A stretch of 64,000 nucleotides of DNA from Massalongia carnosa (GCA_965645245.1 OZ287076.1:1550001-1614000); one strand, 5' to 3'; shown: positions 2,368 to 43,523, counted from the stretch's first letter. Translations and numbers: made by a program. Notes: generated by a model from the letters alone, not told the origin.

Positions 2368-2701
2368 TAACACTTTTCCAGTTTTGGTGGACGTTTGCCT
2401 TGCCTATTAAGCGATGACTGATGCATTAAACATCACGTGATAATATTTATGCACTGATTGGCCAGAACGGATCCAGTTCCGCACCGTAGTGGGAAAAAGA
2501 CGTCAAACCTTTTCTCAAACGGAGAAACGGGAAGAGACCAAGAGATAACCAAAACCACCTTTCGGTCCCACGAATTCTAGCATATTCCTTACCAGCTTTT
2601 GAAAAGCTCGAATTCACGTCACGAAAAGTGGGTAGGATTAGTTATTTCCTTGGGTGGTGGTGGCGTTGTTTGTGTGCTCCAGATTTCAGTTCCTTCTGAG
2701 C

Positions 2702-3355
2702 ATGTCTATGACCTCCTTCAAAGGGGATACTGCATTTCAGGCAAGATCGTTGGTAAGCGTAGATAGCGGGAAAATCCAACTCGACGTCCTCCTAAACGTA
2801 TATCTCTTGGCGCTCGTTCAGTGTACGCTAATCCGGTCAACCAGTTTCGCTCCCTTCTGAGACAGTCCAGCCAGTTTGCATCATACAATTTCAGAGAGTA
2901 CGCTAAGCGAAGAACGAAAGACGCTTTTAGAGAGCACCAACAGGTGAAGGACGATAGGGAGATACAGGAGATTATACAACGGGGCTTAAAGGAGCTGCAA
3001 GTGATGAAGGTGTGTACTACTGCCAGTCTTTGTTCTCTAAACGGATAGAAGCTACCACGCTTCGTAATTGTTTCCGAATGGTAGATGCAATGAAAAAATT
3101 GTTTTAAAAGCTGAAATGGAAAGGGGTTCATATCAATTTGATGCTAACCTTTTTCGCAGAGGCAAACCGTCGTCAGTCAATTTTTCCAGTTGGACCGTTT
3201 GGTAGTTGAAGGGCAGAGAACAGTAAGTTTCTCTTCATCCTGACCTGGTCTCAAGCCTACGTTCAAGCTGATAATATCGATTTTCAATCTTCAAGGGCAA
3301 ACAGACTGGAGCCAGAGGTGATATAGTTCGACAAGCGGCGGAAGGAAGTAGTTGA
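2702..3355 (+). CDS. ISD11: LYR-motif protein Isd11 (Nfs1 partner, Fe-S cluster assembly), 4 exons
   Basis: Spliced reading [48 protein letters not shown]...[24 protein letters not shown], with canonical introns. The last exon and stop are less certain. Confidence 0.9.
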
Positions 3356-4461
3356 TCATCTCAAACTAAAATTATCTTGGCAAATGTATCTTCGAAGCCT
3401 GAAATCTGGCCCCCTTTCCAGCTCTGTGATTTCTAAATGGCTTCGCACACCACGCGCCGCCCCCTTTCTCTACCCACTCTCTATCTCCAGGATTACCGGC
3501 TCCTGTACATAGTCATGTGCAAAGTTTGCTGTATCGCAAGGAATTTTAAGTCTGATACCATTCTAACGGAATCGCATAAAACGAACCGTCCTACATTAGG
3601 TGCTCATGTTAGTTTTAGTTGTCTGGGCAGACACGAGTTCCAAGCTAATACTTGTAGCTATCGACTAATATTTCTCTCAGGTCGGCTCCTTTTCCAAAAC
3701 GCAGTTTACATGTTATGAGCGAGCGAATGTTGGTTATTGCTGTCTTGCAACAGGATCACCATTCAACAAGTCTGACCGAAATCGGCTGTTGAACTCGATT
3801 TTCATTTTTTGAGGTTTTGGTCCAGCGATGGGAACCCGAACCGCTGGCAGGCGTCCCTGGCAAAGCTTCGGCTCGCCTTATTGGACTTAAGAGGTGTCTC
3901 TCCGGGTATTGGGACTGCGGAATGACCGTTTACTTACCTTAAAAGAATCATATCATAGCGGAGAACTTCTTGAGATTTTAATAGATCGCTTTCCCCATCA
4001 TGAGCCCTGCATTGCGTGAGCTCAACTCACGCATTAGACTTTTAACTTTTCCCTCTTTAGATAATTATATTAAAAGCATATAACTCAAGCTTTGGATGAG
4101 TAAGCAGTTCCCCGCAAAAGTTGGACTCAGCCAATGAATAAACCTTTCCTCCGTCCGTCTCTTGGCGCCATTGACCACCTCACATCACAGAGTACTTTTG
4201 TTAGCACACTACTGACCCGCAGCAACAAGTCGCCAATACCATTGAAGCCCTCCTTCCACCCCCACCATCGGGTACCTGTGAACTGACTAATTGCTCTGTA
4301 CCGAATATTGACCCCGCTTCGCTATCTCTCCCTCCAAGCACTGACACGTGAGGTGCATATCGTATACATTTCTCACGGAAAGCTCGATCAACAGCTTTGC
4401 TATATAGCTCTGGTCCTCGCTGCTGTCATCATACTACCCACCAAACTGAGCATATAGCAGT

Positions 4462-5644
4462 ATGCTTACTCGACGTCTTTGTTCCAGTCTGCAGCACCCA
4501 TCATCCCTTCTCCGAGCCTTCAGCACATCAGCCACCCTCAAAAGATCCCCCTCGTTAGCAGACATCACCCCCAATGGTGCGCCTGTATTCGACTCGCGTC
4601 AAGTCACGTTTCGAGAGCAACTGAAAGAAGTCCAAAGAGAAAAGGAAAAGCAAGATAGTCAGTCCGTTACTGCTTCTAAATCTCCTGTTTCGCGTCCCTC
4701 TGCTTTTTCGGGAAGCGCTCCCACTGCTCCTAAGGAGAGCAATGCGAGTGCCGCCCATGGCTCTCGCGATGAACTGGCCCTTGGCTCACTCTCAACACAT
4801 GATGCAGGGGCAGCGCGCGAATCCTCCCACAAGCAAGAAAGCACCAAACGAAAAGGGGCATTGTCGTCTCTGATATATGGCACCAATGAAGGGCGACAGA
4901 TGGATCAAGAAATCGAGAAATCATTCTCACAAGTGCTGGCGAGAGGAAAATACGTGCATTCGATCGTGTTCCATTCGGTCAAACCCGACAAGGTCGATGA
5001 GTATGTAGATCTTGTGGGAGGATGGTATCCTCGTATGGCGAATATCAAGGGGAACCATGTCAATCTTGTCGGAAGCTGGAGGACCGAAGTTGGAGATTGT
5101 GATACATTTGGTAACTTAACACGAAGCCAAGCGATTTGCAAATGCTAACTGTGGTATAGTACATATTTGGGAGTATCAACGCTACCAAGGTTACCATGCT
5201 TCATTGCACTCCATTGCCTCGCATCCAGACTTCGCCGAGTTTGACAAGAAACTCAAGACCTTGATCACCCAAAAGAACACTTCTCTCATGCAAGAATTCT
5301 CGTTCTGGCCCACTACTCCGCCGCGTCAGCTAGGAGGTTTGTTCGAACTTCGCTCGTACACGTTACACCCAGGGAACCTTCTTGAATGGGAGACACACTG
5401 GCGACGAGGACTCAAGGCAAGGAGAGAGGTCATGGAAGGCGTTGGTGCGTGGTTTGTGCAGATTGGAGATTTAAATACGGTGCATCATCTTTGGCAATTT
5501 GCCGATTTGGAGGAACGGAAGGCACGGAGAGAAATGAGCTGGGGGGTTGAGGGTTGGGGTGAGACGGTCCACAAGACGGTGCCCTTGATTGAAAAGATGA
5601 AGAGCCGGATACTGATACCAATGCCATGGAGTCCGGTCGCTTAG
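4462..5644 (+). CDS. NIPSNAP family protein (mitochondrial), 1 intron ~5111-5159
   Basis: Motifs LVGSWRTEVGDCDTFVHIWEY, FELRSYTLHPGNLLEW and GAWFVQIGDLNTVHHLWQF; N-terminus resembles a mitochondrial presequence. Confidence 0.92.
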
Positions 5645-6158
5645 GGGATCGAAGTACCTCTTGTTTCTTAATTTCGGCAACGGGTTTCCCTAGTTAGCGA
5701 TTCATTGTTCGTTTCTAGGTGGTTTTTCTCGGCCTTTTATTCCTGTTTCAGGCTTTGTATACATATAGTAGCATCCCTTTGACGACAGGGGAAAGGGGCT
5801 GCAAAGGGAAGGGAGCTTTCATTCGTGTCTTGGCGAAAGACTTTTAGGGTGACAGACTCGGCCAAATTCGTTAGCGAATGATAGACTACAAGAAATTAAT
5901 GTAGTACGGGCGGTAGCGTTCTTGTATCTATGTCTTGTGCCATGAATCTATGAAATAATCAAAACGTCAAATGAATTAAGCGCTGAAGCGTTAACTTAAG
6001 TAAAGTTATATAATAGGAGTTTGTGCAGCTGACTCAGCTATCCCAAACGGAAGATATTAATACCGACCCATAGGTTTAACAAATGTTTACGAATACACAA
6101 CATCTGCTTCTCTATAATATTTGAACTAACTTGCTGTCTTTTCCTTGTACTTCTTAAC

Positions 6159-7831
6159 ATGGCCGACGGAAGGATTCTGAAGCCTGAAAAGGACTTTACT
6201 AAAGAAGCGGACAAGCAGATACCCGAAGCTCAAGAGCTTGCTAAAGTAATTTACTTGGTCATATTCCTGATCTATCGCTGATCGTTTTTCTTAAGAACAG
6301 TGTGCAAGCGGCAATCGAGAAGCTCTCAGCCCTTGAGAAAGCTACCCGACAAGTGAGCATTTGTTTCGGAGGCTGGAAGTGGATGATTTGCTGAACATGG
6401 CCGGTTAGGCTTCAGATCTCGCGTCCTCTTCGAGGCTTCTAGTCGCCATCGTCACGATATGTAAGAACTCAGGAGACTGGGATCTGTTGAATGAGCAGGT
6501 CTTGCTCCTATCGAAAAAGCATGGCCAGCTCAAGCAAGCTACGACGAAGATGGTGCAAGTGGTCATGTCGTTCATCGAGGAAGCTCCGAATGCGGCGAAG
6601 AAGCTTTCGGTAGTAGAAACGCTGCGGACGGTGACTGAGGGCAAGGTATTGAGTGCGAAAGCTCCGGTCTGAACGTGTGGCTAATGTATGAGGGTAGATA
6701 TTTGTCGAGGTGGAAAGGGCCCGAGTCACTCGCATACTATCTAATATGAAGAAAGAGCAGGGCGATCTCAATGCGGCGGCAGACATTCTTTGTGAACTGC
6801 AGGTCGAAACGTTTGGCTCGATGGAGCGAAGAGAGAAGACTGAATTCATCCTTGAACAAGTGTCTTTGTGCATAGAAAAGGGGGACTGGACACAGGCCGG
6901 CATATTGAGCCGGAAGATTAGTACAAAGTATTTCGCCCGAAAACCGAAGAGAACCCCCGAACAGATAGAAAAGGAGAAGAAGGACCGGGAACAGAAGGAA
7001 AAGAATCGAGGGGCGGATGATCCGCCGTTGGAGAAGGAGGACGACGTAACGGACTTGAAGTTACGGTACTACGAACAGCAGATTACGCTTGCAAAACAGG
7101 ACGACAAGTACTTGGATGCTTGCAAACACTACCGACAAGTGCTGGACACCGAGTCCGTAGAGGAAAATCCAGAGCAGCTGCGGGCTGTAAGTTTGGGCTA
7201 TCGCTGCTTTATATTCTCTAAACTTTTACAGGTCCTCCAAAGAGTAATTTATTACATTATCCTTGCCCCTTACGATAACGAGCAATCCGATCTCCTCCAC
7301 CGCATCCACTCCGACACCCGCAATACCCTGATCCCTTCCGAAGCCCAATTGCTGAAACTGTTCACCATTCCCGAACTCATGCGCTGGCCTATTGTTTCCG
7401 AAAAATTCGGGCCGCATCTCTGCACCACCGACGTCTTTTCCGCCTCCCCTTCCACCACCGACCCCAAAGCTCACATCCGGTGGCAAGACCTGCGGAAACG
7501 TGTCATCGAGCACAACGTGCGCGTTGTAGCTAGATACTACACCCGGATCCAAATGGGCCGCCTCACGCAACTGCTCGACCTCGACGAGGACGAAACCGAA
7601 TCCTACATCAGCCAGCTCGTGACGGCGAAGACGGTGTACGCCAAAATCGACCGCCCCGCGCGGGTGGTGAGTTTCGCCAAGACGCGCGATGCGGACGAGG
7701 TGTTGAACGAGTGGAGCGGCAGCATGAAGGGTCTGCTAGGCTTGCTGGAGCGTATCGATCATTTGATCACGAAGGAGGAGATGATGGCGAGGATTCAGCC
7801 CGTGGGGGGAAAGGAGGTCAAGGCGCATTGA
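6159..7831 (+). CDS. RPN5: 26S proteasome lid subunit Rpn5 (PCI domain), multi-exon
   Basis: LLSKKHGQLKQA, LRTVTEGKIFVEVERARVT, ELQVETFGSM and LRKRVIEHNVRVVARYYTRI; canonical introns. Confidence 0.95.
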
Positions 7832-9024
7832 TGGTTACATAGAGAAGGACTGCCTTGGTTGTTTTCCTGACAGAATCAATCGCTGCATGTCCTCTTCCAC
7901 CAGCCGGAAAGGGTTGCCGTGATTTTGACAACTTCACCAGACCCTTGCGCCAAGTCTTTCTCCTCCAAAGCCTTGAACTAGGTAGGATTATAAAGTTGCC
8001 TGATGATTGACCGATTCTACACGATCAACTACCCCTCAACGATATCGCGCCCTAGAAGTGGTTCGGATTCCGCTACATATGTACTTTTTTTGAAAGACTC
8101 CTTCTTGACGAATAGCCTGCCCTCCCAAAGACTCTTTCTCCTTCTCCTCCTTTTTCTCCTGCTCCTCCTTCTTCTTAGTAACTAGCAACTACAGAGTACT
8201 CATAGAGAAAAAAAAAGCGAAGCACCATTCGTTCGTTCGTTCGCTTGGTTTGCTTGTATCCATCATTATCAATACCATTATCACTACCATTAAATAAGCT
8301 CACCCATCCAAAAAAAAACCACCACCCATCCATCTTCCTCCCTATCTAGTCACCTTGTGCTTTTCCTTTTCTTTGCGCTAAATACATAACTAGCGAAGAC
8401 AAAACCGTCTGCAAACCGACAGAGAATCGAGATCGGGACATTTGCCCGATGTTGTTTTTATATGTTAACTCGTTTTGGAGTACCTAGTTAAGTTAGTTAA
8501 GTTAATGTTGTCTCTCTCTCTCTGTGCGTGTGTGGGTGCTTTTTCATGGGGCGATGCCCTATCGCGAATCCAGTACCTCTGTATACTGAATGGAGTTTTG
8601 TTTATCCTCCTTCCTTCTCCGATATTGTTGGTTGGTTGGTTGGCTTTTGCTTTTGCTTTTGCAAGGAGGAAAAGGGAAAATAGGTAGAGTGGTGATTTAT
8701 GGTTTGGTACGAGATTTTTTTTGGTACCGATTGTGATGATGGCGCAGAAAGGGACGGAGAGAGGGAGGGAAGGGAGGGGGTGAGGGGTGGGGTTTGCTGA
8801 CCGAGGAAGGAGGGAAGGATTGGCGGATAGGTATGTACGGTAGGGTAGGTATGGATCGGTAGGAGATGGAAAGGGTGATTTCAGCGCTTTTTGAGACTTC
8901 CCTTCCCCTATTCGACGCCCTCCGCTTGCTTGGTACTTTTTTGGCTGTAGAATCTATCTATCTAGGTAACACAATATACCTAAAACAAAGCTTGTCGACC
9001 AAGCTAACCAACCCCCCAACCGAA

Positions 9025-28965: not shown

Positions 28966-31066
28966 CTAAACTGTCATCGTTTCTGTTCGATTCGCTTCAA
29001 CGCTTGGGTCAGAGGCTTGCGTTGTGGGCCTCCTCTCCGGTATGGAGCTCTTGATACTTTGCTCAATTACATCGGCTGGGTTAACGGTCTGTTCCAGGAT
29101 TCCCCCCGGTGCAGAAAGGCTATACATGGCATCCGGACCAGCAACGATGGATCTGTTGGAAAGCTGTCCATTCCACTCCGGACGATACCAAGGCGGCATT
29201 CTTTCGGCTGTTTTCTTATGAACCACTCTGCCTTTTCATCGATTGCCTTTCCCATTGTCATAACATGATCTTCCATAAGCTCATCATGATAATCTGAGCT
29301 GGCCCAAGATCGTACAATAGATTGCATTTGAGCTTTGGATTTGTATCTCTGAACACGACATCACAGCAGCCATATCCATCCTGGATATCCTGCGATGACA
29401 ACTGAGAAAAAGTATATTCTCTCGTCTCTTGCTTTCTTGAACTTGTCCCGGGATGGCTAGCTCCGCTAGCTTTTGCGCCCGAGGTTAGCGATGTACCAAA
29501 GAAGACATGTGAAGACAAGGAGTACAACCGTTGTGTATAAAAAGACCGAGATTGGCTTTCTGTTGGAGTTAAGCTCCTACCCTACATCAATTATGCTGAG
29601 ACTTCGTAGTTTGATCACATACATACCTGAATGTTCATGCCAAATATTGAACTCGACAGACTTAGGGGGATATATATGAAGGCAATGATAGTTACTGAAG
29701 GGTTAGCAAGGAATATTCAGCTGTTGTAGCTCAGAAAAGGGTGAGACATGTACACACTAAGCTTCACCCGTTTTGATTCGTCAATGGATATGTTCGCTTG
29801 TTCAATGGATCTCTTAGAGTTCTCTATGGACTTCTCTGCCTGCTGGATTCCCTTTCTAGACTCTTCAAGGACCATAAACTGACGAGAAGCTGCATGCTAT
29901 CTCTCATCTGGGACTCGGAGCTTTTTTATTCCTGGAGGATCAGATTTTGAGCTGACAAGGATGCTTCCCACTCTAGGTCAATCTCCATAGCTCTGATTTT
30001 ACAATCAGATCTTGCAGGGTTGGCTTGGTCGCTCGTTGTATTTTTTGCGGTGCTTAGATGAATTTCTAAAATCAACAGCGCCCGAAAGATTGCAAGGCTA
30101 CGAAATGAATTTTCAAGGGCATTGATGTGGATCCGTAGCGTCGTCATGTTCTCATAGATTTGAACGGGAATCATGCCATTTTAAAAGTCTAGAGCTGTAT
30201 CATGCAATCCACTTTTCAGAGTATTGTTCCAATAGGTGTGTCTGTACAGAAGAAAATTAGATATGTAAAGAGAGAACCAATCAAATGTGCAGAATGAGGA
30301 AGCGAAAAATACATCTCTTCAATAACGATTAAAGGATACAAACACAACATAGGGTGCTGAGAGACATTAGAGATTGTCGTCGCTGTGATATGCAAGAATA
30401 TCGAGGCATATTCCTGCACAGTATCCGCCCAGAATCCATCTTCTCTGATGTACTTCATTCTTGAGAATGAAGTACCATCCACTGTCAGTCCTGGGACGTC
30501 TCCTGAAACAAAAGCTATATTTTGATACCAGTCTGAAAGCCAAGGTGGATGGTCCTCCAACAGCGCTTCTAGCGCAACGATAACTGTATAAATAGATTGA
30601 GACTTCGACTTAGAAAAAAAAGTTCACGGCGGATTAATTCATGGGAAGCGAGGGTGTCAGCTTGCCTATTGTAATCTTCCTTCCACCCTCTGGTAATTCT
30701 TTCAGCACCTTGGCATGATGATTGCCAAATCGAAGAAACCTTGGTTTCAATGGCATTGGTGGTAGAGGATACTTGAGTTTCGATCCAGGCAGTCCTCCCA
30801 ATGAGCAAATGCTAGACCAGAAAAAGAGAGGCTCGATGCCAAAATGAAGGCCCAAGACATCAACCAATCCTGGCACATTGTATGGCTGGCTAGCACTAAG
30901 CGAGGCGACCCGAGCGATGTGGGTGGCACGGATAGTCCCTTTGGTAGGAAAAATCGAGAACGACAATCATGCGCTTTCGGCTCGATTGTCAAGAACAGAA
31001 CGTTATCACCATCTCACCCGTGCCATGCAAAACTTAGGTCGCTTTTATGATGGCGCGATCTGTTGA
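28966..31066 (-). pseudogene. CorA-like Mg2+ transporter-domain gene, disrupted
   Basis: Exon ~29627-29695 reads TIIAFIYIPLSLSSSIFGMNIQ (GMN signature), followed by a second TM; N-terminal VDVLGLHFGIEPLFFWS. Several in-frame stops; ends approximate. Confidence 0.75.
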
Positions 31067-31716
31067 ATTGCACTGCCGTCGTTCTGGAAGTTTCTATGCT
31101 TAGTCAGCTGAATGTGTATTAGCCGCTCTTCTCCCTCTATAGAATAATCAACCGTCTCAAGTTTCAACACGATCACCACGAGGAAGTGGCAAAACATTGC
31201 TGGACAGATCATCACGAACGAAATGTACTCTGTACGTGTTGTGGCACAGCCTTCGCCTGCACTAACCTCTTTCGGTTAGCTCGGAGCTAACTTATTTAGC
31301 CTATATGCCTAACCCTTTAAAATTAGACTTTGCTTACTAAGTTCGCTGTGCTTACACGTCTGAGGACAAAACTCAATAATACGGGCAGGTTTGCTTAATA
31401 ATGAAATAATACTTAATTATCGAGCGGCCTTCCCCGATTGAGCGTAAAATATCAACTCAATCATGTTATACCATACCGCCGTTTTTTATATGTGTTATTT
31501 TTATGTTTTGGAACCGCGCGGCCGAATATGTGCACTAAAGAACGACATCAAGGGATGGCGAGCATGCTTTTTAAACTCGATGCAAGCTGGACAAAAAGCT
31601 CGGGTTTCAGTCTACAATGGACATCAATTTGGGTCACGAAAATAGTAAGAGAAAGTCGGTTGCAGCCGGTCATTGATTCATAATTAGCAGTGCATCTCTA
31701 TAGCTAGACTATCCAC

Positions 31717-31743
31717 GGCAAAGCCGCGCTGCGCGGATTTGCC
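31717..31743. repeat. Imperfect palindrome, copy 1 (GGCAAAGCCGCGC-T-GCGCGGATTTGCC)
   Basis: Read directly; 14 nt beyond the stop at 31758. Confidence 0.9.
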
Positions 31744-31757
31744 ACATGACATTTGGT

Positions 31758-32936
31758 CTACCTCTTTCTTCCCTTGGCTGCCTTTTTCGCTGATTTATTG
31801 GCCGCCTCTACCAGTCCAAGGTTGGATTTGGCGCTTTTGATTTTGGCGGCCTTCGGGGTCTTGATGTCCTTGGAGGTTTTTGCAGCTTTGCCGCGTTTGC
31901 TAGAACCTGAAAAATCTGTCGGGTCTTCTGGATCGCCAGCCGGGAGCTGGACCTCGGCTTTGTAGTCTATCTTGAAGCTAAATCCTTCACACTTAAATTC
32001 TTCAAAGGAAGGCCGGATTGTAAAGAGCCCGGCAGCCTGTCCCTCCCTGCCCATGAGGCAATGAATGCCTCTCCACCACATGTAATACCAACCAGTTTCA
32101 CCTTCCTCCACCACGTTCCCATCTACATCGCGAGTGCTAGCGACCACCCAGATTTTAGCAGCGTGGCCCAGAGGCATGCGGGTAGCGCGAGGCATGCCGG
32201 CATGGCTATGGGCCAAAATTTACTGAGCCGCTTTTGAGACATGGATCCCAGAAGCTTGGCAACAAGAAAATCATCAACCCTGACATCTTCGCGAAGAATG
32301 TCATCAAGGTTTTCTAAGGAGGGGTTCATGACGAGAGCGAAGGTATCATAGATACTGTAAGAACCTCTATAGATGGGCGCCTCCGAACCAACGTTATCAA
32401 GGGCAGGATCGTAAACTTTGTAGCGGCTAGTGATAAATTTTTTGATATGGGATCTTGGTTAACGAGCCGGTTTAATGACGCGCGTCTTCTTGATAGATGA
32501 GCTTGAGGTGTTATCATCAGGAATGGGGTCGTCAAGATCGCGCTTGGGAAGACGCTTAACCGCGGTCTTGGTAGCCTCTCCGCTTGTAGTCTTTGTTTCG
32601 CTCTTAGTTCTCTTCTTGCTCAATCTGCTGCTTGACTCTTGTTCCTTCTCCTCGGTGTCTACATCAATTATTTCTCCTGCCTTCTTGGACGCAGGAGTCT
32701 TCTTAGACGTAGGAGTCTTTTTATTCGCAGCCTGAGATGAGGGCAAAGGAACTGTCTCGGAAGGCGGAAGCGCCAAATTGGCTTCGGATGTCTTGGGGCT
32801 ATTCACCACTGAACTAAGGGCTTGTGTCATGTAAAAGTGAGCAGAATTCACCTGAGGTTTAGTAAACATCAACATGATATACCTCTTTCGCAACCAGCCC
32901 TATGCCGACAGCAATATCATCTTGCACTGATTCCAT
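31758..32936 (-). pseudogene. Unknown Lys/Ser-rich protein, one premature stop and one frameshift
   Basis: ORFs 32893-32459 and 32329-32123 share a frame across a TAA, then shift into 32216-31758, which ends in a KAAK-rich tail. Start ATG 32936 needs an unusually short 31-nt intron, so it is uncertain. Confidence 0.55.
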
Positions 32937-33423
32937 CCTGTTTACTAGGAAGGGGTTTCAAAGGTGGATGTAGGTAATATTCGACAGGTTTAGATATCAC
33001 TGCATAAAGATGAGAAAGCGAGACAAGCAATCACGAACGTAATGTTAGTTCAAGAAATGTTTTGCAGATTAGGTTTGTAAAGCTGAAACACTTTTCAGGT
33101 GGGCATTAAATAGGTGACCACGACGGTCATTCTTGGTGCGCGTAGATGAAGTTTCTGGGAGGTATCCTGAAGCGTTGATCTACTAACAAAGCTGATTAGG
33201 GCTAAGCTTGTATAATCGATGCGTGATGTTTGTTGTGTTCTTCATGAGTTGTTTTGTTGGCGTTCTTTCATCTTTATCCTTCTTCAGTTCAAAGTCTTCT
33301 CGTTTCTAATATTCTTCAAGTGTTATCTTCAAGGTCGATCCCTTCACAAAGCTCACTCTGTACTTTCTTGTCATTAATCCTTGTCAACAAGGTCGTTCTA
33401 TCTAGGTCTTCAGCTTAGATAAA

Positions 33424-35659
33424 ATGAATGAAGAACGTACGGTGGCAAAGAGATCCTTTGATGATTTGACGAAAGAGACGAACAGTTTGGCTCTAAGTGA
33501 GATCAAGAGAGTAGTCAAATATGCAACTGAAGGAAACGCCCTCAATGCCCTTGACAACCCCATTATCAAAGATATTCGAAACAGGACCACTACAGCCAGA
33601 AATCGAAAAGCAAAGTCGATCAAGGAGATAAAGGCGGTATGGGGATCCGAAACTGAAGACTGGCACTTTGAGGAGTTTGGTGAGCTCTATCTGAGCAAGG
33701 TGGCAGCGGTTGCCAAAAAGCACTCCTTTGATAAGGCTAGCAGGATGATTTTACAAGTTACCATGGATCGCTTACGAAAAGGTCAGTCTAGTCGTGGCTC
33801 GACTAGAGACATTATAACCAGAGATTGGGGCAATCTAAACGCGATGAACGAAGAAGACGCCAACTCGTTACTGTTGCGGCCCTCTCTTGATGCTGAGGAG
33901 CTAGCTCAATTTGAGATGAATCTGATAAAGCTAAATGTGTCTGGTGAGCGCGGCCGTTCAGAGAAACGACTCACCACCGTCAAAACGACGAAGATTTAAG
34001 TCCAGGGCAGTCCGCCTTCGAGCGCTCACCTCTCTCACTCAAAAGAACATTGAGTCATCACAGGATGATGAAGAGACCGAAGAGAGAGACGAAGAAAGTA
34101 GTGATGAGAGTGAGGTGGAAGAGAAGAAATCAATGATGAAAATTTTCAAGCAAAAGTGTTCATGTGAAAACATTCATCGGGCGATTCTGGAGAGACTAGA
34201 GAGAAAGACTGCCTCAGCGGCAGGAATGAAAGGTGACGCAGAGTGTCTAGGCACTCTTAGAAAAATAATGTCTGCAGTTATCCACGGAGAGGAGTTAACT
34301 CACGTCTGCTATCGTCATCTTCTAGCTATAGGCGGTCATTTCGGTCTTCAAGTCAATAATTTAAATGCAGAAGAGTTAAGGCAGAGGCTCAAGTCTTGTC
34401 ATCATCATCGTTCCAACCTCGATGATCTGAAAACAGGACGGGAGACAAGCTTCTGCTTTTGTTTATGTGCTAGACCGAGGGTTGATGATGATGCTCTTGG
34501 CGTCTATTACAAACGAGCAACGAGATCATCTCTGATAAGAGGGCTCAATGAGGAGCAAGCCAAAATCATAGTCGACGAGATTGGAGGAGAGTTTGCTTGG
34601 GATCTCTGGATGAAAGATGGAAATCGTATGTTTGATTGGTTGTGGAAAGGGATAAAATCCAAAGACGAAGTAGAGACCGGAATCGGAGATCTAATACTCG
34701 AAGAGTTCGACATCTATCAGTGGCATCAGCGGGAGAGGAATGGTCAGTCGAATCGTGGATGGTTACGAACTATGTAATACTCTTTAACCCAACAGTTGAT
34801 CCGTCAAGACATCGAATACTGGGCACTGTACGCGTGCCTCCGTCCCGATCGCAATATTCGATTGGTATCATATCCGTATTACGCGACGTATACACGGGAG
34901 GGAGATCCAACTTTTTTTCGCCATATTGATATGAAGGTACCAAAATATCTGGATAATGGTCATGGGGGCAACATCATTCAAGGTTCGGTGTCGCTTAATG
35001 ATGAGACCGCCGAGGGGTGTACTAAAATAGTCCCTGGTTTTCATCTACACATTGCCCAGTGGTGGAATAACGTGTGCGCTCGTGGAGAGGTCCCGGATGG
35101 ACACGTACATGGCCTTGAAAAAATATGGATCAAAGAAGATGCCGCTCAGTTTGGAGACTTTATTCCTGTTCCCTGCAAAAGAGGAGACGTGAGAGTCACG
35201 AAGCCAGAAATCCTTTATGGTTCGACTCCAAAAAAAGGAAACGGCCCGCGTCGGACGGTTCTGCCTTGGTACGTCGGCGTGCAAGAAGACGGCGAGACGC
35301 AGGACATTGTCGAGTCCGATAAATAGAGTGACCTCGCAAGGGCGCATGCTAGTCAAACAGCACCCAGAGTCACTCCTTCAGGACTCGCGAATCGATTTGG
35401 GCCTATCCATAAGTTTCCACCATTCACTCAGCTCTGGCTTGATTCTCCTATCAGTCACGCGCTCGTCTGTCGGACAAGCTGGGAGGACCCTGTCGTTCAA
35501 GCGCAGGCAAACGTAATACTGGGAGAAGATCGCAAGTTAGCAGGAGGCGATTCAGAACCATAGGTTGAACGCTTGCGCAGTTTCAAGGCCGCGTATGGAA
35601 GAGTGAAAATGGTGGAGAGATTGATGTTTGGAGAGGATAGTTTTTTCGTAAATAATTAA
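33424..35659 (+). pseudogene. PhyH-like 2OG-Fe(II) oxygenase-domain protein with long N-terminal extension, disrupted
   Basis: FFRHIDM (HxD), IIQGSVSL, GCTKIVPGFH, VPCKRGDVRV...ILYGS and RRTVLPWY follow the PhyH pattern. Frameshift near 33940, TAA 34775-34777, TAG 35324-35326. Confidence 0.7.
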
Positions 35660-35736
35660 GCAGTCGATGCCTGCGTCAAGCCTGTTTAATTAGCGTGCCT
35701 GTTTTTGAGCTAGTCTCTTGTGTTAATGGTGAACTT

Positions 35737-35758
35737 AAAGCCGCGCCGCGCGGATTCG
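35737..35758. repeat. Imperfect palindrome, copy 2 (AAAGCCGCGC-C-GCGCGGATTCG)
   Basis: Read directly; 77 nt beyond the stop at 35659. Confidence 0.9.
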
Positions 35759-35877
35759 ACCTAGCGCGGCATAAACTTACATGGCTATACCCTGTACATC
35801 CCGCCCGTGCCCCGCTAGCGGTGTAAACAAAGGAAAGGTCACCTGTCCACAGCGCAAAAAAAAACATTGACTTCATC

Positions 35878-36273
35878 ATGGCCTCAACCGAAGCCAACGC
35901 CTCCTCGCCCACTGACCTGTTGACAAGTCCCTGACCTCGAGAGTTTCAACCCCTTCACTGCCAGAAAGCCAAACTCCTTTAAGGCGCCCTCAATCAACCA
36001 TTGCAACTGGCCTCTAAGTCGCTCGTTGAGGTCAATGGGGATCGATTTTCGATGAATCCGACAGTTAACCTTTATATGGAAGGCCTCGCTCGCCTGGGTG
36101 AGAGCTCGATGAAGTACAATCGACATTACATAAGTGAAACGGTACCCCTTGACGATCATGAAAAGGATGTTGACCTTGGACTCGCGCCTACAAATGAAAC
36201 CAGTGAAGCACCTGAAAGCCCCACCCTTCCAACAAGTACGCTGGAACCCTCAGGCGGTATGTTTGTTGATTAA
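35878..36273 (+). pseudogene. Small unknown ORF with two in-frame stops
   Basis: ATG 35878 is in frame with ORF 36001-36273, interrupted by TGA and TAA that would revert to CGA and CAA. Confidence 0.35.
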
Positions 36274-36301
36274 ACCCGTTCTATTCATCGCTCACCGGAG
36301 G

Positions 36302-36328
36302 AGCAAATCCGCGCCGCGCGGCTTTGCT
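36302..36328. repeat. Imperfect palindrome, copy 3, inverted (AGCAAATCCGCGC-C-GCGCGGCTTTGCT)
   Basis: Read directly; lies between the convergent stops at 36273 and 36337. Confidence 0.9.
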
Positions 36329-36336
36329 GTCCGCCA

Positions 36337-38569
36337 TCACTCATCCAGGTAAGCTGGTCGCCTTCTTTTTCGCCCGGAGCGAGAATCGGGCAGCTCCCTT
36401 GAGGCGATAGACGTTAACTCCGGTGAAGGTCGACGAGGCGTTTGAAGAGGTTTGTCTCTTGAGTTGTTGATGAATGTCTGAGCTCGATGAGCTTTTGGGG
36501 TTGCGTTCAAGCTTGACGCCCTTATTTCACTAAAAGCGTGACGGATAAAAGGTTCAGTCTGATGACCTGATGAAGTAAGGCTTAACCTATTATCTCCATC
36601 TTCTTGCCCTAGATTTTCCTTATCGCTCGTCGTGTCGTTGTCACTTGTCTTTTTCAGCGTTTTCCTTTTGACGTTCATCGCATATCCTCTTTGAATCGCC
36701 CAACTGTTTCTTCGCTCATCAAATTCTGTTTTGGCAGGATTGCTTAATGGCACTAAGATTCGTTTTTTTTTTTTATCATTGTGCCGCTTCCATTCTTCGA
36801 ACATTTCCCCCTCGGCCAGATCTATCGCTTGACCCCGTTTGAGAATATCCAGAATTTCTGCGCTGTGAATTTTCATGTCACTCCAGAAACCATCGATGAA
36901 TCTCGTCATATCCGATTCATCGCTTATAAGATCCGCCCAAGTTGCTAAGGATTTCAACACGTCGTCTGGCAATATCACCGATGGGAAAAATTGTATGTGA
37001 GAATTGGGAAATAGGATTTGTGCCTTGTTTTTTCTCCATTCTTCCAATCGACGAGTGAACCATGGACGCTTGGAAGCATTCCGAGCGTTATCTGTGTTCA
37101 ATATGTCATGAGGAAGTGTCGATGTCTGCGATTCAGGGTTGCAAGTCGAGCAACATGGCAGCGGCTTCTTAACTTCGGACGACGCATATGTATCATCATC
37201 AAAAAACCCCAGCCCGGTTTCTCGAATGCATGCATCTGAAGCGACGTTGATCATTTCATGTAGTCCATGCGGCATGTCGCGCCTCCGATCCGCATCCAAT
37301 TTCTTTGTGCCCTTCTTATCAGCGCCGGAGGCGGCTTGGGTTATCGGCTGACCCAGCGAATCCTGAGTGAATAGGACCTTGCCGCTCTTCGGCCCCACAC
37401 ACCATGGCGGATGCAGAGAGATGAAATGAGCCCGACGTCCACCGCTTCGCATGGCGCGTCCCACACGCTGATAGAATTTCTGCTTTGATGAAGATAAAAG
37501 CCACTGCGCCACTCTTTCAATATCGGGATTGTCAATGCCCAACCCATATGCATCCGTTGCAATCAATATTCGAGGCCATGCACACTCTTCCGAAGATATC
37601 CTGAACTGACGCTGAACCAGCTGCTTATCAAACGAAGCCATATCACCAAAATAAGGACTTATCCAATGATAAGATTCTTTAGGATATCCTAGCTGTCTCA
37701 TCCAATTGCGCATCAACTTACATGCGGTTTTGATGGAATTTATCGTGTCCATGTAAATTATTGTCTTTGGAACATCAAAAGGAGTTTCGGCTCGAATCGG
37801 TAAAGATGTTGAAGGTCAAGCATTCCAGCTTGTGGTTTCAATAAAGAACTGACTTGAATGTAAATGTCTGGTCGATCAAGAGGCGCTTTAATAAGACGAG
37901 TTTCATCATGAAACCCACATTGACTTCTGACGCAGTTCAGGGTTTCTTCATCCAAAGTTGCAGAAACTCCCAAAAAAGGTATTCCATCTGGCAATCGGGT
38001 TCGAAGCACTCCAAGGTTGAAGTATTCCGGTCGGAAATCGCGCCATTCTGATACCAGATGCAGCTCGTCGATGGCCAATAGACAAAGATTTGAGAAATAA
38101 GACGAATGACTGAGAACCATTTCGTTAAATCGCTTCGATGTTGCTATTTCTGGACTTGTGAATACTGTAAGTGTTAGACCGCTGACTTGTACACAACAGG
38201 AATATTCGACTTACCATGAGTGTAACAACTTTGACGAATATCAGTCAAGGTAGATGGATTATTATTATCTCCGTTCAACACTATGGGTCGACAGTTTTCG
38301 ATGAAGGTAAGTTTTTCACATTGCTCCTCTTCCAGTGCAATCAAAGGCATGATTATCAACACTGACTTGCAAGGCGAAAACATCAAAGGAGCAGCTTGAA
38401 ACAGTATGCTCTTTCCGAAACCTGTTTTTGCTATCAAGATCAAATCCATTCTATCACACAACAGATGATGAAGCGCATCCACCTGCTCCCTCTTTGGACG
38501 AAATCCGACATACTGATCAACAACGCTCTCGATCTTCTCACGAGTCAACATCTGTATCGCGTCACTCAT
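36337..38569 (-). pseudogene. RecQ-like superfamily-2 helicase, intron 38165-38214, single frameshift near 37801
   Basis: Motifs AKTGFGKS, PLIALEEEQ, DELH, SAT, ATDAYGLGID and QRVGRAMR, a Zn site C...CCSTC, and an HRDC-like segment LEEWR...ILPDDVL. Restoring one T gives QHLLPIRAETPFDVPKTIIYMD. Confidence 0.88.
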
Positions 38570-39629
38570 ATTGATGTAATATCGCTACAACAAGAAAGCA
38601 CGCTAGCAAGGACGACGACTATATTTTTGAGTTTGAAGTCCTGAAGAACTACGATAACATGATCCGCCAAGGCAATATGATGAATATGAGCGCCGACTAT
38701 TGAATTGAAGAGCAAGACTCAATTCGAAGTTGTTGTGCTGTCGTCGAGATTTGAGAGTCAATTTGAGTCGATATTGCTCGATGATGAAGATAACTGCGCA
38801 ACGCGCGCAGGATGTTTAAATTTTAGATCATTTAATAAAGAATATCTTAAAGTAGCGATGACAATAATGTATTATATTACAACTATCATGCGTTGTCGTT
38901 GATCTTGTCTTAAACGTGAAAAACGATGATTTTAAATCTTAAGCGCGAAACTTACGTGTGTTGTCACCAAAATAACGCGAACCTGACAAAATTACAGAGT
39001 TTTGAACTTTCAGACCTGCCGCCCGAAGCATGCGTAGTAAGCTAAATAGAATCTTATCCTAAAACAGTTAAACATTTAACTAAATTGACTTAGCTTCTGA
39101 CTAATTATATACTAATCCGAAAAGGCTTAGCTGTGGCGAGGGCAAGGCAGGTCTGAGGTACTGAGGCAAGGGTTCGCGGTGGGGCAACGAACGGATGACT
39201 CATCGAGATGGGCGCGCTAGGCTCCCCCGGGACGCGCGGTGAGACTGTCCGATTGTGGGATGGAAGGTTCCATTCTTCTTTCTCAGTCGACATGCCTCGA
39301 GGTCAAACCAGGTCTTCCGCACCACCGTACTGACTGACTGTCTTGGCAAAAGTAGCCTCGGCTGGTTCCACCAGTCACTCGGAAAATTCTAACGCGCTTT
39401 CTGTTTTCTGGCCCCTCTCCTTGCCTTTCACCAACCACCCACATTCGCACAGCCAGTACTTTTACCTTCAAGGCAAACCACCTCTTGGGGTATTGCAAGA
39501 CTGTGCCGTCTATTTTGCGATGAGACCAACACGAATTGAATGAGCCCTCTTCTGGCCAGTTTCTGCTAGAGTCTTGCAGTGAGACAGCAGATTCACGATT
39601 CGACTCGGGCCGGCGCTACCTGTTTCGAG

Positions 39630-42299
39630 ATGGTCAACCTTTCGCAAGAAGATCGCACCATCATCCTGGAGCATCCTTTGGATGACTCCCTAGATCATCT
39701 ACAAGATGCGCTTCGGAAGGCGGAGCGGTCTTATAAGCCAGGTGTGATCTCTTACGATGGAGCTGTTGACAGGTCCGACCAAGGACTTCAAAAGGCAACG
39801 TCAAGGCTTCTGAGCGCTTTGATGGGTTCAGACGTGACTCTTTATCTCCCTTCGAAGACTGGAAATCGAAACGTCGCTTCTGACTTACTAAGGGTTCGCG
39901 AACGCGTCCAGAAGGGTGACTTCCATTACGAACACTACCATGCGCTATCACGGCTAGTTATTAAGAAGGCATCGGACATCGAAATCTGGAACGCTGTCTT
40001 CGATCTCGTAATCACTCTTTCTCGGATAAGCCCTCCTGCAAGCGTTCCTGTCTCGTTCGACGGCACGCCCATCACGCATTCCTCCGCCTCGCAGCAAGGT
40101 GATGAGCAGACCAAAGAGTTGTTGAATGGACCGATTTTCCATGAAATTAAGAGATGTACATACAGGAATGTTGGCGGATTCTTCTCAAAGTATTTCGAGG
40201 GCAAGCAGTGGACTGAGCGGAGCAAAGAAATATACAATGCCATGAAGGACCGACATGTCGACGGCCGGTGGACTGACTTCCCTGATCCGCCAGTGCAGAA
40301 TGCTGTATGGGAATGGTTAGTTCATTTTCAGGATGAGTTTCTATCCGACGCGCAAGGTGTCTACTACACAAGCAGAAGTACCAAGGATCTTACTGGTGCT
40401 GAGGCACGACGTCAGCTCGATCTCTTCATCAAACGGAAGAGCGACAAGGTAGGAACGACACACAAATGGAAAGACGTCCGGGTCATTGGTGAGCACAAGC
40501 AATCAAAGGACGACTTTAAAACTTTGCTCCTCCAACTCGGCAGGTACATGCGTGATGTATTTACCGCCCAGCCTACCCGCCGCTTCATCCATGGATTTTT
40601 CCTCCACGGAACCACCATAGAGCTGTGGGTGTTCGATCGATCTGGCCCTTACAGCTCTGGTGAATTCGATATTCACGAGGAACCCGAGCAATTTATCCGA
40701 GCCGTTGCAGGGTACGCTATGATGAGCGACGAAGAGCTGGGCTTGGACATATTCGTTGAGCGGAATGGTGGAGATCTATTTATAACCATTACGGAAGATG
40801 CTACTGGAAAGGAAAAGAGATTTCAGCTGGAGCGTGCTCCGCTTGTCGTGCAACGAGCCATTGTCTGTCGGGGAACAACCTGTCATCGCACCAAGGATCT
40901 GGAAGATGTAGCCAAGTTCTCATGGACATCCGCCAAGCGGCCACCGGAGGCAGATCTCCTGAGGTTGGCACATCAGAAAGGTGTAAAAGGAGTTGCAAGA
41001 TTGCTGGGCTACCGACGCATAACTAGCATCGAGGAAATACGTAGCGGATTAACCTTTCCTGCTCCTCACCGATTCCGAAATACCTCGCCAAACACCTCGG
41101 CATCTTTCTCGCAATCCCAATCACAGCAGCCACTTTCTCGGTCTTTTGGGCCGTTCCAACGTTTGAGTATCGTGCAGATCTCTTCGAGGAGCTCGAAGAA
41201 ACGAAAATCTCCAGATAACGAAGCAAAAGCTTCCAAAAGGTCAAGATCCAACAGTCAAAGGTCAAGGCTACATCAAGAACACAATGCTACAGAGGCCCTG
41301 AAGATTACACAGACAAGGGGCCGAAAGCCTGTGGACCACGAAGGAAAGTTGCTTAAGGAGCCCGCATCCACCAGTCAAAAGTCGACGTCACGCAAGGAGT
41401 ACGAAGTTTCGCAATCCCCGGGAAATGCTGGTACAAGGAAACGAAAGTCTGAGGAAAGCGAAGAAAAGTCTTCGAAGCGGTCGAGATCCAACAGTCAAAG
41501 ATCAGACCTATCTCAGGAACACGAATCGTCACAAGCCCTTGAAAATACACAAGCCTCGAGTTTCTGTGACCCAAGCGACAGATCATTCGACAATCGCGTA
41601 TTCGGCTGCTTAATTATCTCGCCGGCCGGACGAGCAATCAAGGATTTTTACTCGATCCTAGAGCTATTAATGACACTTCGTGATGCGATCAAGGCGCATA
41701 GATCCTTGTACTTGGAAGGATCTATACTGCACAGAGACATCTCGGAAAACAACATCATAATAACAAATCCAAAGCAGGCCAATGGCTTCACGGGGATGCT
41801 GATCGATGCCGATCTTGCGAAAATAGTCGGTGGTGGGCGAACCGGCGCACGGCATCAGACAGGCACAATAGAGTTTATGGCGATTGAAGTGCTACGCAAA
41901 GTCGCTCATACCTATCGGCATGACCTCGAGTCGTTCTTTTATGTGCTTCTATGGATCTGCGCTCGTCGTGCGTGGGAAAGGGAATTTGGGTGCAAGTTGG
42001 TGGATAGACCCAAGAAAAGCATTTTAACGAAGTGGTACACGGGCGATTATGATGATATCGCTCGAAGTAAACGAGGCGATATGGGTGTTGATGGGTTTGA
42101 GGACATTTTGGAAGAATTTCCTTCAATATTCGATCACCTTAAGCCTTTGTGTCAAGAGATACGGGGTATCCTCTTCCCATATAAGGATGGGTTGTTTACT
42201 GGAACCCCACCGGATCCGGAGAAGCTATATGGGCCTATCCTTGAGGCATTCGATGAGGCTATAGCTAAGATAGCCAGTGCAGAAGAGAGTTTGGGATAG
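39630..42299 (+). CDS. Fungal-type protein kinase (FunK1 family), intact and intronless
   Basis: VFTAQPTRRFIHGF, WVFDRSG, IVCRGTTC, VAKFSW, ILHRDISENNI, LIDADLA, TGTIEFMAIEVL and HTYRHDLESFFYV. Confidence 0.95.
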   Translation: MVNLSQEDRTIILEHPLDDSLDHLQDALRKAERSYKPGVISYDGAVDRSDQGLQKATSRLLSALMGSDVTLYLPSKTGNRNVASDLLRVRERVQKGDFHYEHYHALSRLVIKKASDIEIWNAVFDLVITLSRISPPASVPVSFDGTPITHSSASQQGDEQTKELLNGPIFHEIKRCTYRNVGGFFSKYFEGKQWTERSKEIYNAMKDRHVDGRWTDFPDPPVQNAVWEWLVHFQDEFLSDAQGVYYTSRSTKDLTGAEARRQLDLFIKRKSDKVGTTHKWKDVRVIGEHKQSKDDFKTLLLQLGRYMRDVFTAQPTRRFIHGFFLHGTTIELWVFDRSGPYSSGEFDIHEEPEQFIRAVAGYAMMSDEELGLDIFVERNGGDLFITITEDATGKEKRFQLERAPLVVQRAIVCRGTTCHRTKDLEDVAKFSWTSAKRPPEADLLRLAHQKGVKGVARLLGYRRITSIEEIRSGLTFPAPHRFRNTSPNTSASFSQSQSQQPLSRSFGPFQRLSIVQISSRSSKKRKSPDNEAKASKRSRSNSQRSRLHQEHNATEALKITQTRGRKPVDHEGKLLKEPASTSQKSTSRKEYEVSQSPGNAGTRKRKSEESEEKSSKRSRSNSQRSDLSQEHESSQALENTQASSFCDPSDRSFDNRVFGCLIISPAGRAIKDFYSILELLMTLRDAIKAHRSLYLEGSILHRDISENNIIITNPKQANGFTGMLIDADLAKIVGGGRTGARHQTGTIEFMAIEVLRKVAHTYRHDLESFFYVLLWICARRAWEREFGCKLVDRPKKSILTKWYTGDYDDIARSKRGDMGVDGFEDILEEFPSIFDHLKPLCQEIRGILFPYKDGLFTGTPPDPEKLYGPILEAFDEAIAKIASAEESLG

Positions 42300-42410
42300 G
42301 TCGGGCATTCGCTCTTTGTATCTTACAAACAATGAGGAGACGTAAGCGTAAATAACTTATTACGCTCGTCGAACCTTTCGCCCAGCTTGGGTGTTAACAT
42401 CCTTTTAGAA

Positions 42411-42740
42411 GCTTCTGGATGCAGCCTTTGAAAAGACGTTCAGAAATTCATGGTATTTCGGGGGGACTATGGTCTTCGGGTCAGTGGGTCGGCGGTTTTT
42501 CTTGTTCAGCTGGTACTCGATGTCTTTCAAAGAAATAGAGAATAGCTCAACAATCTTTTGCTTGGACAGCAGTCGGTACGCAGCGCCTCTATCATCGCCA
42601 TCTCTATCGGCTTTTCTTCGGGAGTCGGCTTAACCTCGGTTCTAGAGTCCTTTGTTCGACACCGTCCTGGTCGAAATGGCCTGTTCTGGTCGCTTCAGTA
42701 TTTTCGTGATCTTTTTGGGTTCGGTGGCGTCCAAGTTTTA
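42411..42740 (-). mobile_element. Ty3/gypsy pol fragment (linker just upstream of reverse transcriptase)
   Basis: Minus strand reads AAYRLLSKQKIVELFSISLKDIEYQLNK...DPKTIVPPKYHEFLNVFSK and then breaks off. Confidence 0.7.
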
Positions 42741-42949: not shown

Positions 42950-43435
42950 TAGTTATTGCTGGTAAACCAAGAGTGATGCGATGCCGCTTTGCTCAACAAT
43001 ACAAATGAAGAAAAAGTTTGTCAAAATCCCCTCGCTTTGCCACCAACTCTCCCACGATCCGAAGCCTCACGTTCCTGTAACGTCCAGGCTCTCAAACTCG
43101 AACAATAATCTAAAACTCATCCCACGGGTCTGCGTTTAGATAGCGGTCTTCTCCTAGTTAATCTTGAAATAACTACACCGTAGCCCTAGAGCCTTTCTAA
43201 GGGGTTTGTAGGTTGACAGATGGTTCAAGAAGACGATTTTCATCGTCTTCAGTGGCTATAGATTCACGTGGCAAGTTCGAGTCATTGAATGAGCTGTCGA
43301 TTGTGACTCAGGCTGACTGTCCTATAAGTTGTAACCAGAATGTAAGTGTTGTTGCTTATGTCAATTCTTTGTCCCCCTTTTGGTTTTTGGCTTTGGCTTG
43401 CCGGTGTAAGGAAAAACCGACAACACGGAAATTTT

Positions 43436-43523
43436 TGCTATGAGCAAGGTTCGAACTTGCGCGGAATGCTACTTGTGTTTAATAAGCTTAAGATAGATGC
43501 ATTAACCACTCGGCCATCACAGC
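43436..43523 (-). tRNA. tRNA-like gene, Leu(UAA)-like, aberrant and possibly a pseudogene
   Basis: Acceptor stem GCTGTGA/TCATAGC, A box TGGCCGAGTGG, T arm GCAAG-TTCGAAC-CTTGC and a downstream T5 tract. The anticodon and variable region pair poorly. Confidence 0.6.

Follow-up and report, generated by a model that had tools for sequence, protein, structure and literature searches.

A transposase-less, inverted-repeat-bounded DNA transposon copy carrying RecQ-like helicase and PhyH-type oxygenase genes in a lichen-forming ascomycete

An 8-kb stretch of chromosome from the lichen-forming ascomycete Massalongia carnosa, at about 31.2–39.17 kb of a 64-kb window (the whole stretch of DNA analysed here), is a real, repeated copy of a class II DNA transposon that is bounded by inverted repeats and has no transposase of its own. 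It holds the genes of a RecQ-like superfamily 2 (SF2) helicase and of an Fe(II)/2-oxoglutarate (2OG) oxygenase of the PhyH type. The window is fungal, and the helicase gene contains a spliceosomal intron with a GTAAGT donor. AcademH elements, as Kojima reportedly described in 2020, are DNA transposons of the Academ superfamily that encode a helicase. Arguing by analogy, we give a probability of about 70% to the reading that the stretch is a dead, non-autonomous, cargo-bearing derivative of an AcademH-like element, where DUF6589, a protein family encoded by its relatives, is likened to Academ by described features.

The element was delimited by its inverted-repeat arms. Local alignment of 30800–31700 with the reverse complement of 38650–39600 gave a best match between 31249–31425 and 39143–38943, with 130 of 205 columns matching (63%) and a score of 37. 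The outer coordinates of this alignment, 31249 and 39143, are those that an initial annotation of the window had proposed as the ends of the element. With +1/-1/-2/-1 scoring, real pieces of the window on either strand scored 11.5 ± 1.8 (maximum 18) and none of 600 was as high as the arms, which score 16 in direct orientation. A 5/-4/-10/-1 scheme gave 367 for the arms versus 175.6 ± 33.1, again with 0/600 controls as high. Under stricter 2/-3/-5/-2 scoring the arms reach 25 versus 17.5 ± 2.1, a value matched by 3/600 controls and 10/500 dinucleotide shuffles; with 1/-2/-3/-1 there is no arm signal (450/600 controls as high), and the pair is missed by BLASTN at E ≤ 1e-3. Because the strict schemes are marginal or null, the significance of the arms is limited to scoring fit for ∼63% identity.

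The DNA beyond the arms is dissimilar (11 versus 12.8 ± 1.9, 380/400 controls as high). BLASTN of 30.5–43.5 kb against the window returned only a repeat internal to the adjoining FunK1 kinase gene and a 28-nucleotide (nt) palindrome pair. Other end pairings, namely the FunK1 unit and a block at 30.65–43.45 kb, showed no inverted or direct repeat above controls, with one marginal exception (a direct match of 31342–31395 to 43387–43439, with a score of 18 where the highest control had 17). Taken by themselves, the weak strict scores, the silence of BLASTN on the arms, and the absence of a second element copy from the 64-kb window by the same program would favor an ordinary accessory gene island that is not mobile and whose flanks owe their likeness to chance or to a local inverted duplication. 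Against this stand the 0/600 controls under suitable scoring, as well as the evidence from termini and other copies.

The right terminus lies at 39169, on the minus strand (5'-TTGCCTCAGTACCTCAGAC, 39169–39151). We place it there because its terminal 19-mer is shared with other element ends and because two joints in the read alignment break at 39169/39170. The initial annotation was right about the inverted similarity and essentially right in its coordinates; its right boundary falls 26 nt short. With this correction the left arm occupies 31249–31425 (plus strand) and the right arm 38943–39169 (minus strand). A scan of the helicase alignment against metagenome contigs yielded 39 loci (L001–L039). 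Allowing up to four substitutions, the 19-mer TTGCCTCAGTGCCTCAGAC occurs at eight places in these loci plus the window, and every one is an element end beside a helicase: L001(-)2866, L002(+)997, L003(-)2163, L004(+)1054, L004(-)3618, variants at L004(+)51 and L011(+)2331, and the site in the window at 39169–39151 (minus strand, one mismatch). The spaced pattern CCTCAG-N1-3-CCTCAG picks out the identical eight places in 263,955 nt, and termini of the family start 5'-T(T/A)(G/A)CCTCAG. Within the window, CCTCAGTACCTCAGAC has a single exact match, for a chance expectation of 0.36 matches at up to three mismatches.

The left tip of the window copy is less well preserved. The expected site of the terminus, at ∼31204–31248 (20–45 nt outside the left arm), is degenerate, and a search of the left side turned up neither the terminal motif nor the right flank's sequence in a 9-bp copy. 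Four contigs of a sequencing run, X1, leave the window sequence before 31234, and their consensus ends in ...TTCTGCCACAGTACCTCAG, resembling the right terminus. It follows that other copies keep the expected left tip and that the window copy has lost it.

Among public sequencing runs, 12 rows cover part of the stretch and four cover at least half of it; they derive from five studies and are labelled as two coded organisms and as lichen metagenomes, and no RNA run is listed among them. Runs X13 and X6, in which the element is almost uncovered, were not used as evidence. Contigs of X1 match the flanks at 26.0–27.9, 29.0–30.0 and 43.8–46.0 kb with 0 mismatches, and hence this run contains exactly this locus. 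We placed 1468 X1 contigs on 20 kb and summed their depth over contigs at least 80% alike, a sum that signals many related sequences and is not equal to copy number. Summed depth was 886–1040 in the flanks, 44205 at 30670–31336, 22396 at 31337–32003, 30844 at 38007–38673 and 28057 at 38674–39340, with 1345–8312 in the element interior; the ends are at 25–50 times the flanks. A similar profile, lower overall, was seen for X5, a run from another coded organism.

Single X1 contigs also join 31357 to 39027, 32022 to 34204 and 36450 to 38312. These forms are copies that have both ends and whose interior is gone, like the deletion derivatives of cut-and-paste transposons. Contigs from the window's genome contain a back-joint that leads from 39170 through CCCTA to 31081, and at L014 1–100 the right end of one copy abuts the left end of another, which carries DUF6589 and helicase genes, across a 7-nt spacer (GGTTCCA). 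Both arrangements suggest end-to-end copies. Each arm is at least 80% identical to other copies, versus 63% between the arms, which agrees with the earlier proposal that the arms were already unlike each other while the element was active. The depth of the ends, the forms that join them, and the occurrence of the terminal 19-mer in unrelated soil-fungus contigs, precisely at element ends, all argue against a gene island; that explanation is already contradicted, and we regard it as highly improbable.

The closest loci to the window, L001–L005, lie on soil-fungus contigs. L001 2759–2866 is the exact reverse complement of L004 1054–1161 over 108 nt, and this inverted repeat ends in the 19-mer given above. 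L003 and L004 are 99% identical until 2 nt past the terminus and then diverge, which fits two insertion sites; the flanks of L001 and L004 are possibly related further out. Some of these contigs hold helicase-only elements of ∼3 kb. L002 (left end at 997) has an intact helicase as its sole gene, the bounded element of L004 (1054–3618) has a cut-down helicase, and L011 has the same terminus-to-helicase layout with an open reading frame (ORF) of 475 aa downstream. Across the window and these relatives, the helicase starts 0.3–0.6 kb inside one terminus. Part of that interval is conserved: the non-coding stretch from the right arm to the helicase start codon (38724–38931, minus strand) aligns to L004 1259–1461 with a score of 39 versus 15.8 ± 2.1 (0/200 controls as high). 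Just outside the helicase element of L001 lies a hAT element (2991–6737). Its 775-aa transposase has a hAT dimerisation domain, and its inverted repeats, starting TAGGGCTGC, are perfect over 18 nt. This transposase was considered as a partner of the helicase and rejected, as it belongs to a separate element with inverted repeats of its own.

The helicase gene of the window (36337–38569, minus strand) matches the Pfam families DEAD and Helicase_C. Exon 1 spans 38569–38215 and is followed by an intron at 38214–38165 (GTAAGT...CAG); exon 2 starts at 38164 and ends with the stop at 36337. The ORF begins at the DEAD domain, and the DNA upstream is non-coding. A Foldseek search with the predicted structure returned BLM (E 5e-6), RECQ1 D2-Zn-WH, WRN and RecQ as best matches; a sequence search of the PDB gave weak matches to RecQ and eIF4A. 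Conserved C...CC..C columns follow the helicase core in the alignment, and the model of the C-terminal region comprises the RecQ zinc subdomain plus helices. The RecQ family is defined by an SF2 core with a RecQ zinc-binding subdomain behind it, and the predicted protein has both. These results bear out the earlier identification of a RecQ-like SF2 helicase. They do not bear out the description of the gene as nearly intact: the frame changes near 37801 through a 1-nt deletion, and since other copies carry one extra base behind this position, the window helicase is frameshifted.

We collected 28 homologues of the helicase, with identities of 32–53%. A second helicase lineage, 49% identical to that of the window, has 43 members at ≥90% identity on Mb-scale contigs and probably represents a sister element that is far more abundant in the same genome.

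What the window element lacks is a transposase, in line with the initial annotation, which saw none. Pfam detects no DDE gene within 31.2–39.2 kb, and when 11 DUF6589-type proteins were compared with the window by tblastn, all matches had E ≥ 0.23. Given that there is no DDE gene inside, the element is at most a non-autonomous derivative. Whether relatives of the element carry a transposase was an earlier question, and DUF6589 supplies a candidate. A DUF6589 gene adjoins the helicase in 13/39 loci (L007, L008, L010, L013, L014, L016, L023, L024, L030, L034, L036, L037 and L039), mostly in convergent orientation; most of the other loci are short. Neither the window nor L001–L006 has one.

The DUF6589 alignment conserves YDN.N, GDQKT and LEH.N, with residues D, D and E. 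An exhaustive structural search with the DUF6589 model put the hAT transposase Hermes on top (Z 8.2, root-mean-square deviation 7.4, 272 aligned residues), and the 29 highest-ranking entries are without exception DDE transposases, retroviral integrases or RAG1. Its alignment and predicted fold suggest that DUF6589 serves these helicase-bearing relatives as their DDE transposase. L039 1020–11758 is a complete 10.7-kb element that has DUF6589 and helicase genes. Its inverted repeats, of ∼70 nt, start TAGCCTC, and its target duplication is a perfect one of 9 bp, AAGCGATTC. L014, which also has both genes, starts TTACCTCAGCAAGCTCAGACCCTC, a close variant of the terminal motif, and its terminal architecture is that of the helicase-only elements. 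In L034 (340–434, 7872–8071) and L037 (1219–1372, 6441–6488, 8482–8530), inverted subterminal arrays of 10-nt repeats of the GAACTCCCAC and GAACTCCTGN types were observed; these resemble transposase-binding arrays.

In the respective sources, AcademH is described as encoding a helicase and making 9–10 bp target duplications (PMC10045372) and as occurring in fungi (PMC10799480), KolobokH as a fungal Kolobok lineage with a RecQ helicase that lies downstream of its transposase domain within a single protein (PMC9587614), and telomere-linked RecQ helicases as fungal gene families (PMC4522978). The window element resembles AcademH in its fungal host, its terminal inverted repeats and its SF2 accessory helicase. 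Its relatives add the pairing of a helicase with a DDE-fold protein and, in one complete case (L039), a 9-bp duplication. In these respects the earlier suggestion of an AcademH-like derivative is strengthened, with DUF6589 as a candidate for the Academ-type transposase. Unlike AcademH, the element in the window, like its nearest relatives, retains helicase and termini without any transposase gene, and the window copy has an extra PhyH-type oxygenase gene and a small ORF.

A different parentage has to be weighed here, in which the element derives from KolobokH or from a Mutator-like superfamily and DUF6589 is the transposase of that superfamily or of a new one. KolobokH, too, comprises fungal transposons that have inverted repeats and a RecQ-type helicase. 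Mutator-like elements also have 9–10 bp duplications and long inverted repeats, and a hAT transposase, Hermes, tops the structural matches to DUF6589. In the literature searched, DUF6589 receives a single passing mention and no described function, and the supplementary material of PMC10799480 does not contain it. In KolobokH, however, transposase and helicase are fused, with the helicase downstream, whereas the window helicase is a separate gene starting from the DEAD domain, DUF6589 in relatives is a convergent gene on the other strand, and our search for longer, fused helicase homologues found none (a weak negative). Kolobok target duplications are TTAA, unlike the 9 bp of L039. DUF6589 matches no MULE or hAT family of Pfam even at E up to 5. 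We therefore think derivation from either group, or from a new one, unlikely.

In the maximum-likelihood tree, the window helicase and that of L007, which is linked to DUF6589, form one clade (99/99) nested among other DUF6589-linked clades; the tree was rooted by midpoint only, and L039 is on a very long branch. Since the clade is nested in this way and L014 has the close motif variant, loss of the transposase is the simpler reading. It is at odds with a scheme in which helicase-only elements are self-sufficient, with the RecQ-like helicase as the sole element protein needed, together with host nucleases or its own C-terminal region, and with no DDE enzyme. Several observations fit self-sufficiency. 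A terminus, 0.3–0.6 kb of DNA, a helicase and no DDE gene recur in the window, L002 and L004, and the terminus-to-helicase arrangement of L011 matches. This layout persists even though the window helicase is only 36–55% identical to those of L001–L006, the L002 ORF is intact, the 43-member cluster points the same way, and the C-terminal ∼250 residues are conserved over 24 sequences. Yet no RNase H-like or other nuclease fold is seen in the predicted structure of that C-terminal region. Transposition by the helicase itself seems to us quite unlikely.

Several results weigh against an AcademH-like derivative mobilized by DUF6589. The window copy has no demonstrable target-site duplication and no intact left terminus. 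Foldseek found nothing for DUF6589 at E ≤ 0.001 (the best match being Hermes, at E 0.09), and the mean predicted local distance difference test score (pLDDT) of the DUF6589 model is 65. The 9-bp duplication was seen in L039 alone, the helicase of which is a distant relative on a long branch; clean ends or duplications were found in none of L008, L011, L016, L023, L034 and L037. L004 1054–3618, the sole complete helicase-only element, shows no duplication, and its flanks are possibly chimeric. Among 110 matches listed in a search for DUF6589 proteins, none lies on a contig of the window's own assembly, which is weak evidence, and a trans-acting transposase in this genome is therefore hypothetical. 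The depth sums in X1, as noted, cannot be read as copy number.

A further point of this kind concerns the boundaries. A contig in X1 and X5 joins 30983 straight to 39225 via a shared GGCTC. Besides the element, ∼229 nt to its left and 55 nt to its right are missing from this form, which goes beyond the bounds defined by the termini. The 10 letters between the two sides of the joint correspond to 39225–39232 with one change and an extra CG. In the window, a 5-bp direct repeat, GGCTC, at 30979–30983 and 39220–39224 brackets the segment 30984–39224. The joined form might be a paralogue that predates a composite insertion, or else the product of a deletion through microhomology.

If the element is an AcademH-like derivative, its history may be outlined as follows. 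Autonomous relatives would have a convergent DUF6589 gene as their DDE transposase. In the lineage of the window this gene would have gone and the helicase stayed, with the PhyH-type oxygenase and small ORF occupying the place that DUF6589 has in relatives. Movement would then have been in trans, by a DUF6589-type transposase recognizing the shared termini, perhaps helped by the element's own helicase, and would have left many internally deleted derivatives in the genome. Judged by its sequence, the window copy is now incapable of movement or of expressing its genes: its left tip has degenerated, the helicase frame is shifted, and the oxygenase is interrupted by a stop codon and lacks an iron ligand.

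The oxygenase occupies 33424–35326 (plus strand, ∼650 codons; Pfam PhyH, E 2.9e-5). Three ORFs, at 33424–33999, 33935–34777 and 34796–35326, are in all appearance one gene: the N-terminal ORF matches the same proteins as the downstream ORFs, a frame change falls near 33944–34000, and alignments to relatives (943 representative clusters at E ≤ 1e-3, mostly 700–1000 aa) span the stop codon. That stop, an in-frame TAA at 34775–34777, stands where 20/20 homologues have a residue. The distal iron-binding His, present in 20/20 homologues, is Tyr in the window, and the HxD half of the iron triad is retained (FRHIDM). The gene is a pseudogene of a PhyH-type family, and its nearest named relatives come from lichen-fungus genomes. 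The initial annotation was correct that a 2OG-Fe(II)-type oxygenase is present; its count of four genes gives way to a probable three.

The third gene would be the small one. Lysine/serine-rich ORFs at 31758–32216, 32126–32458 and 32459–32893 (31758–32899, minus strand) are possibly one intron-bearing gene; they have no Pfam match, and an Atlas search gave only scores below 0.9. A GC-rich palindrome, AAAGCCGCGCNGCGCGGATT, is found at 31720–31739 (19 nt 3' of the small-ORF stop), 35737–35756 (downstream of the oxygenase gene) and 36305–36325 (12 nt 3' of the helicase stop). Its core, CCGCGC-N-GCGCGG, occurs three times in 64 kb, all within the element, once downstream of each gene. These palindromes could be a terminator-like hairpin common to the genes, or a cassette boundary. 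Searches of the 39 loci by tblastn with the oxygenase, small ORFs and FunK1 gave no match, and no conserved pairing of helicase and oxygenase was seen there, on contigs that are short.

Other known systems share single features with the element. KDZ elements are fungal DNA transposons with TET/JBP oxygenases, and the initial annotation drew this parallel. Both have a 2OG-Fe(II)-type oxygenase gene; however, the window oxygenase and its 20 full-length homologues match PhyH or nothing in Pfam and never Tet_JBP, the gene is a pseudogene, and there is no KDZ transposase, so the parallel fails. Pack-MULE-like elements are non-autonomous, cargo-carrying and bounded by inverted repeats. Like these and miniature inverted-repeat transposable elements (MITEs), the window element has no transposase, a host-like captured gene, ends common to presumed autonomous relatives, and many internally deleted copies, down to the 31357–39027 joint. 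In contrast to simple deletion derivatives, it keeps a helicase that is conserved across divergent transposase-less lineages, which is unusual for them. Telomere-linked RecQ helicases are also a multi-copy RecQ-like family in an ascomycete, but the window gene is inside an inverted-repeat-bounded unit. With housekeeping genes on both sides and 0 matches to the telomere repeat in the 64-kb window, the locus does not fit the subtelomeric position of that family. The hallmark of Starships is a DUF3435 tyrosine-recombinase 'captain'; none is among the 68 ORFs of the window scanned against Pfam.

The left neighbors of the element are genes for RPN5, Rsm22, lipoyl synthase, sirohaem synthase and an RNA methyltransferase (25.8–26.9 kb); to the right are Spc19 (45.3 kb), Rpp20, lipoate ligase, and FHA and CWC25 proteins. 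Adjoining the element is a FunK1 kinase gene (39579–42299; Pkinase_fungal, E 9e-131), which is itself repeated, with a summed depth of 7–19 times the flanks. Its serine/lysine-rich insert contains a direct repeat (41198–41311 and 41438–41551, 73% over 114 nt). A 3991-nt contig in X6, a different lichen metagenome, matches 39283–42413 with 70 differences (∼98%), and the Spc19 region of X6 is only ∼80% alike at similar depth; the FunK1 similarity may reflect a recent transfer or a shared mobile unit. Elsewhere in the window, an ORF remnant of a DDE_1 (pogo/Tc5-type) transposase, at 768–1526 on the minus strand (E 1.3e-8), is unrelated to the element.

For the window alone the result is modest, a dead transposon copy, and it explains an orphan pair of helicase and oxygenase that annotation would otherwise label as host genes. 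Its wider interest lies in the relatives. A Pfam domain of unknown function gains a role, with DUF6589 apparently the DDE transposase of helicase-bearing fungal transposons, and the conserved terminal motif is a handle for finding such elements. The portions of the literature searched gave no description of helicase-only transposons. One tentative possibility, to which we assign a minor share of our belief, is that elements lacking the transposase but retaining the helicase form a lineage of their own, stable and widespread in the lichen fungus and in soil fungi, which has kept family-specific termini and an intact RecQ-like helicase over ∼50% protein divergence, and are not sporadic deletions. 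If so, the helicase may be needed in cis and the DDE enzyme borrowed, a two-tier parasitism within one superfamily; alternatively, the helicase itself may drive movement. The group that pairs DUF6589 with the helicase could also be a superfamily separate from Academ. Lineages that shed the transposase and keep the helicase bear on the role of accessory helicases in cut-and-paste transposition.

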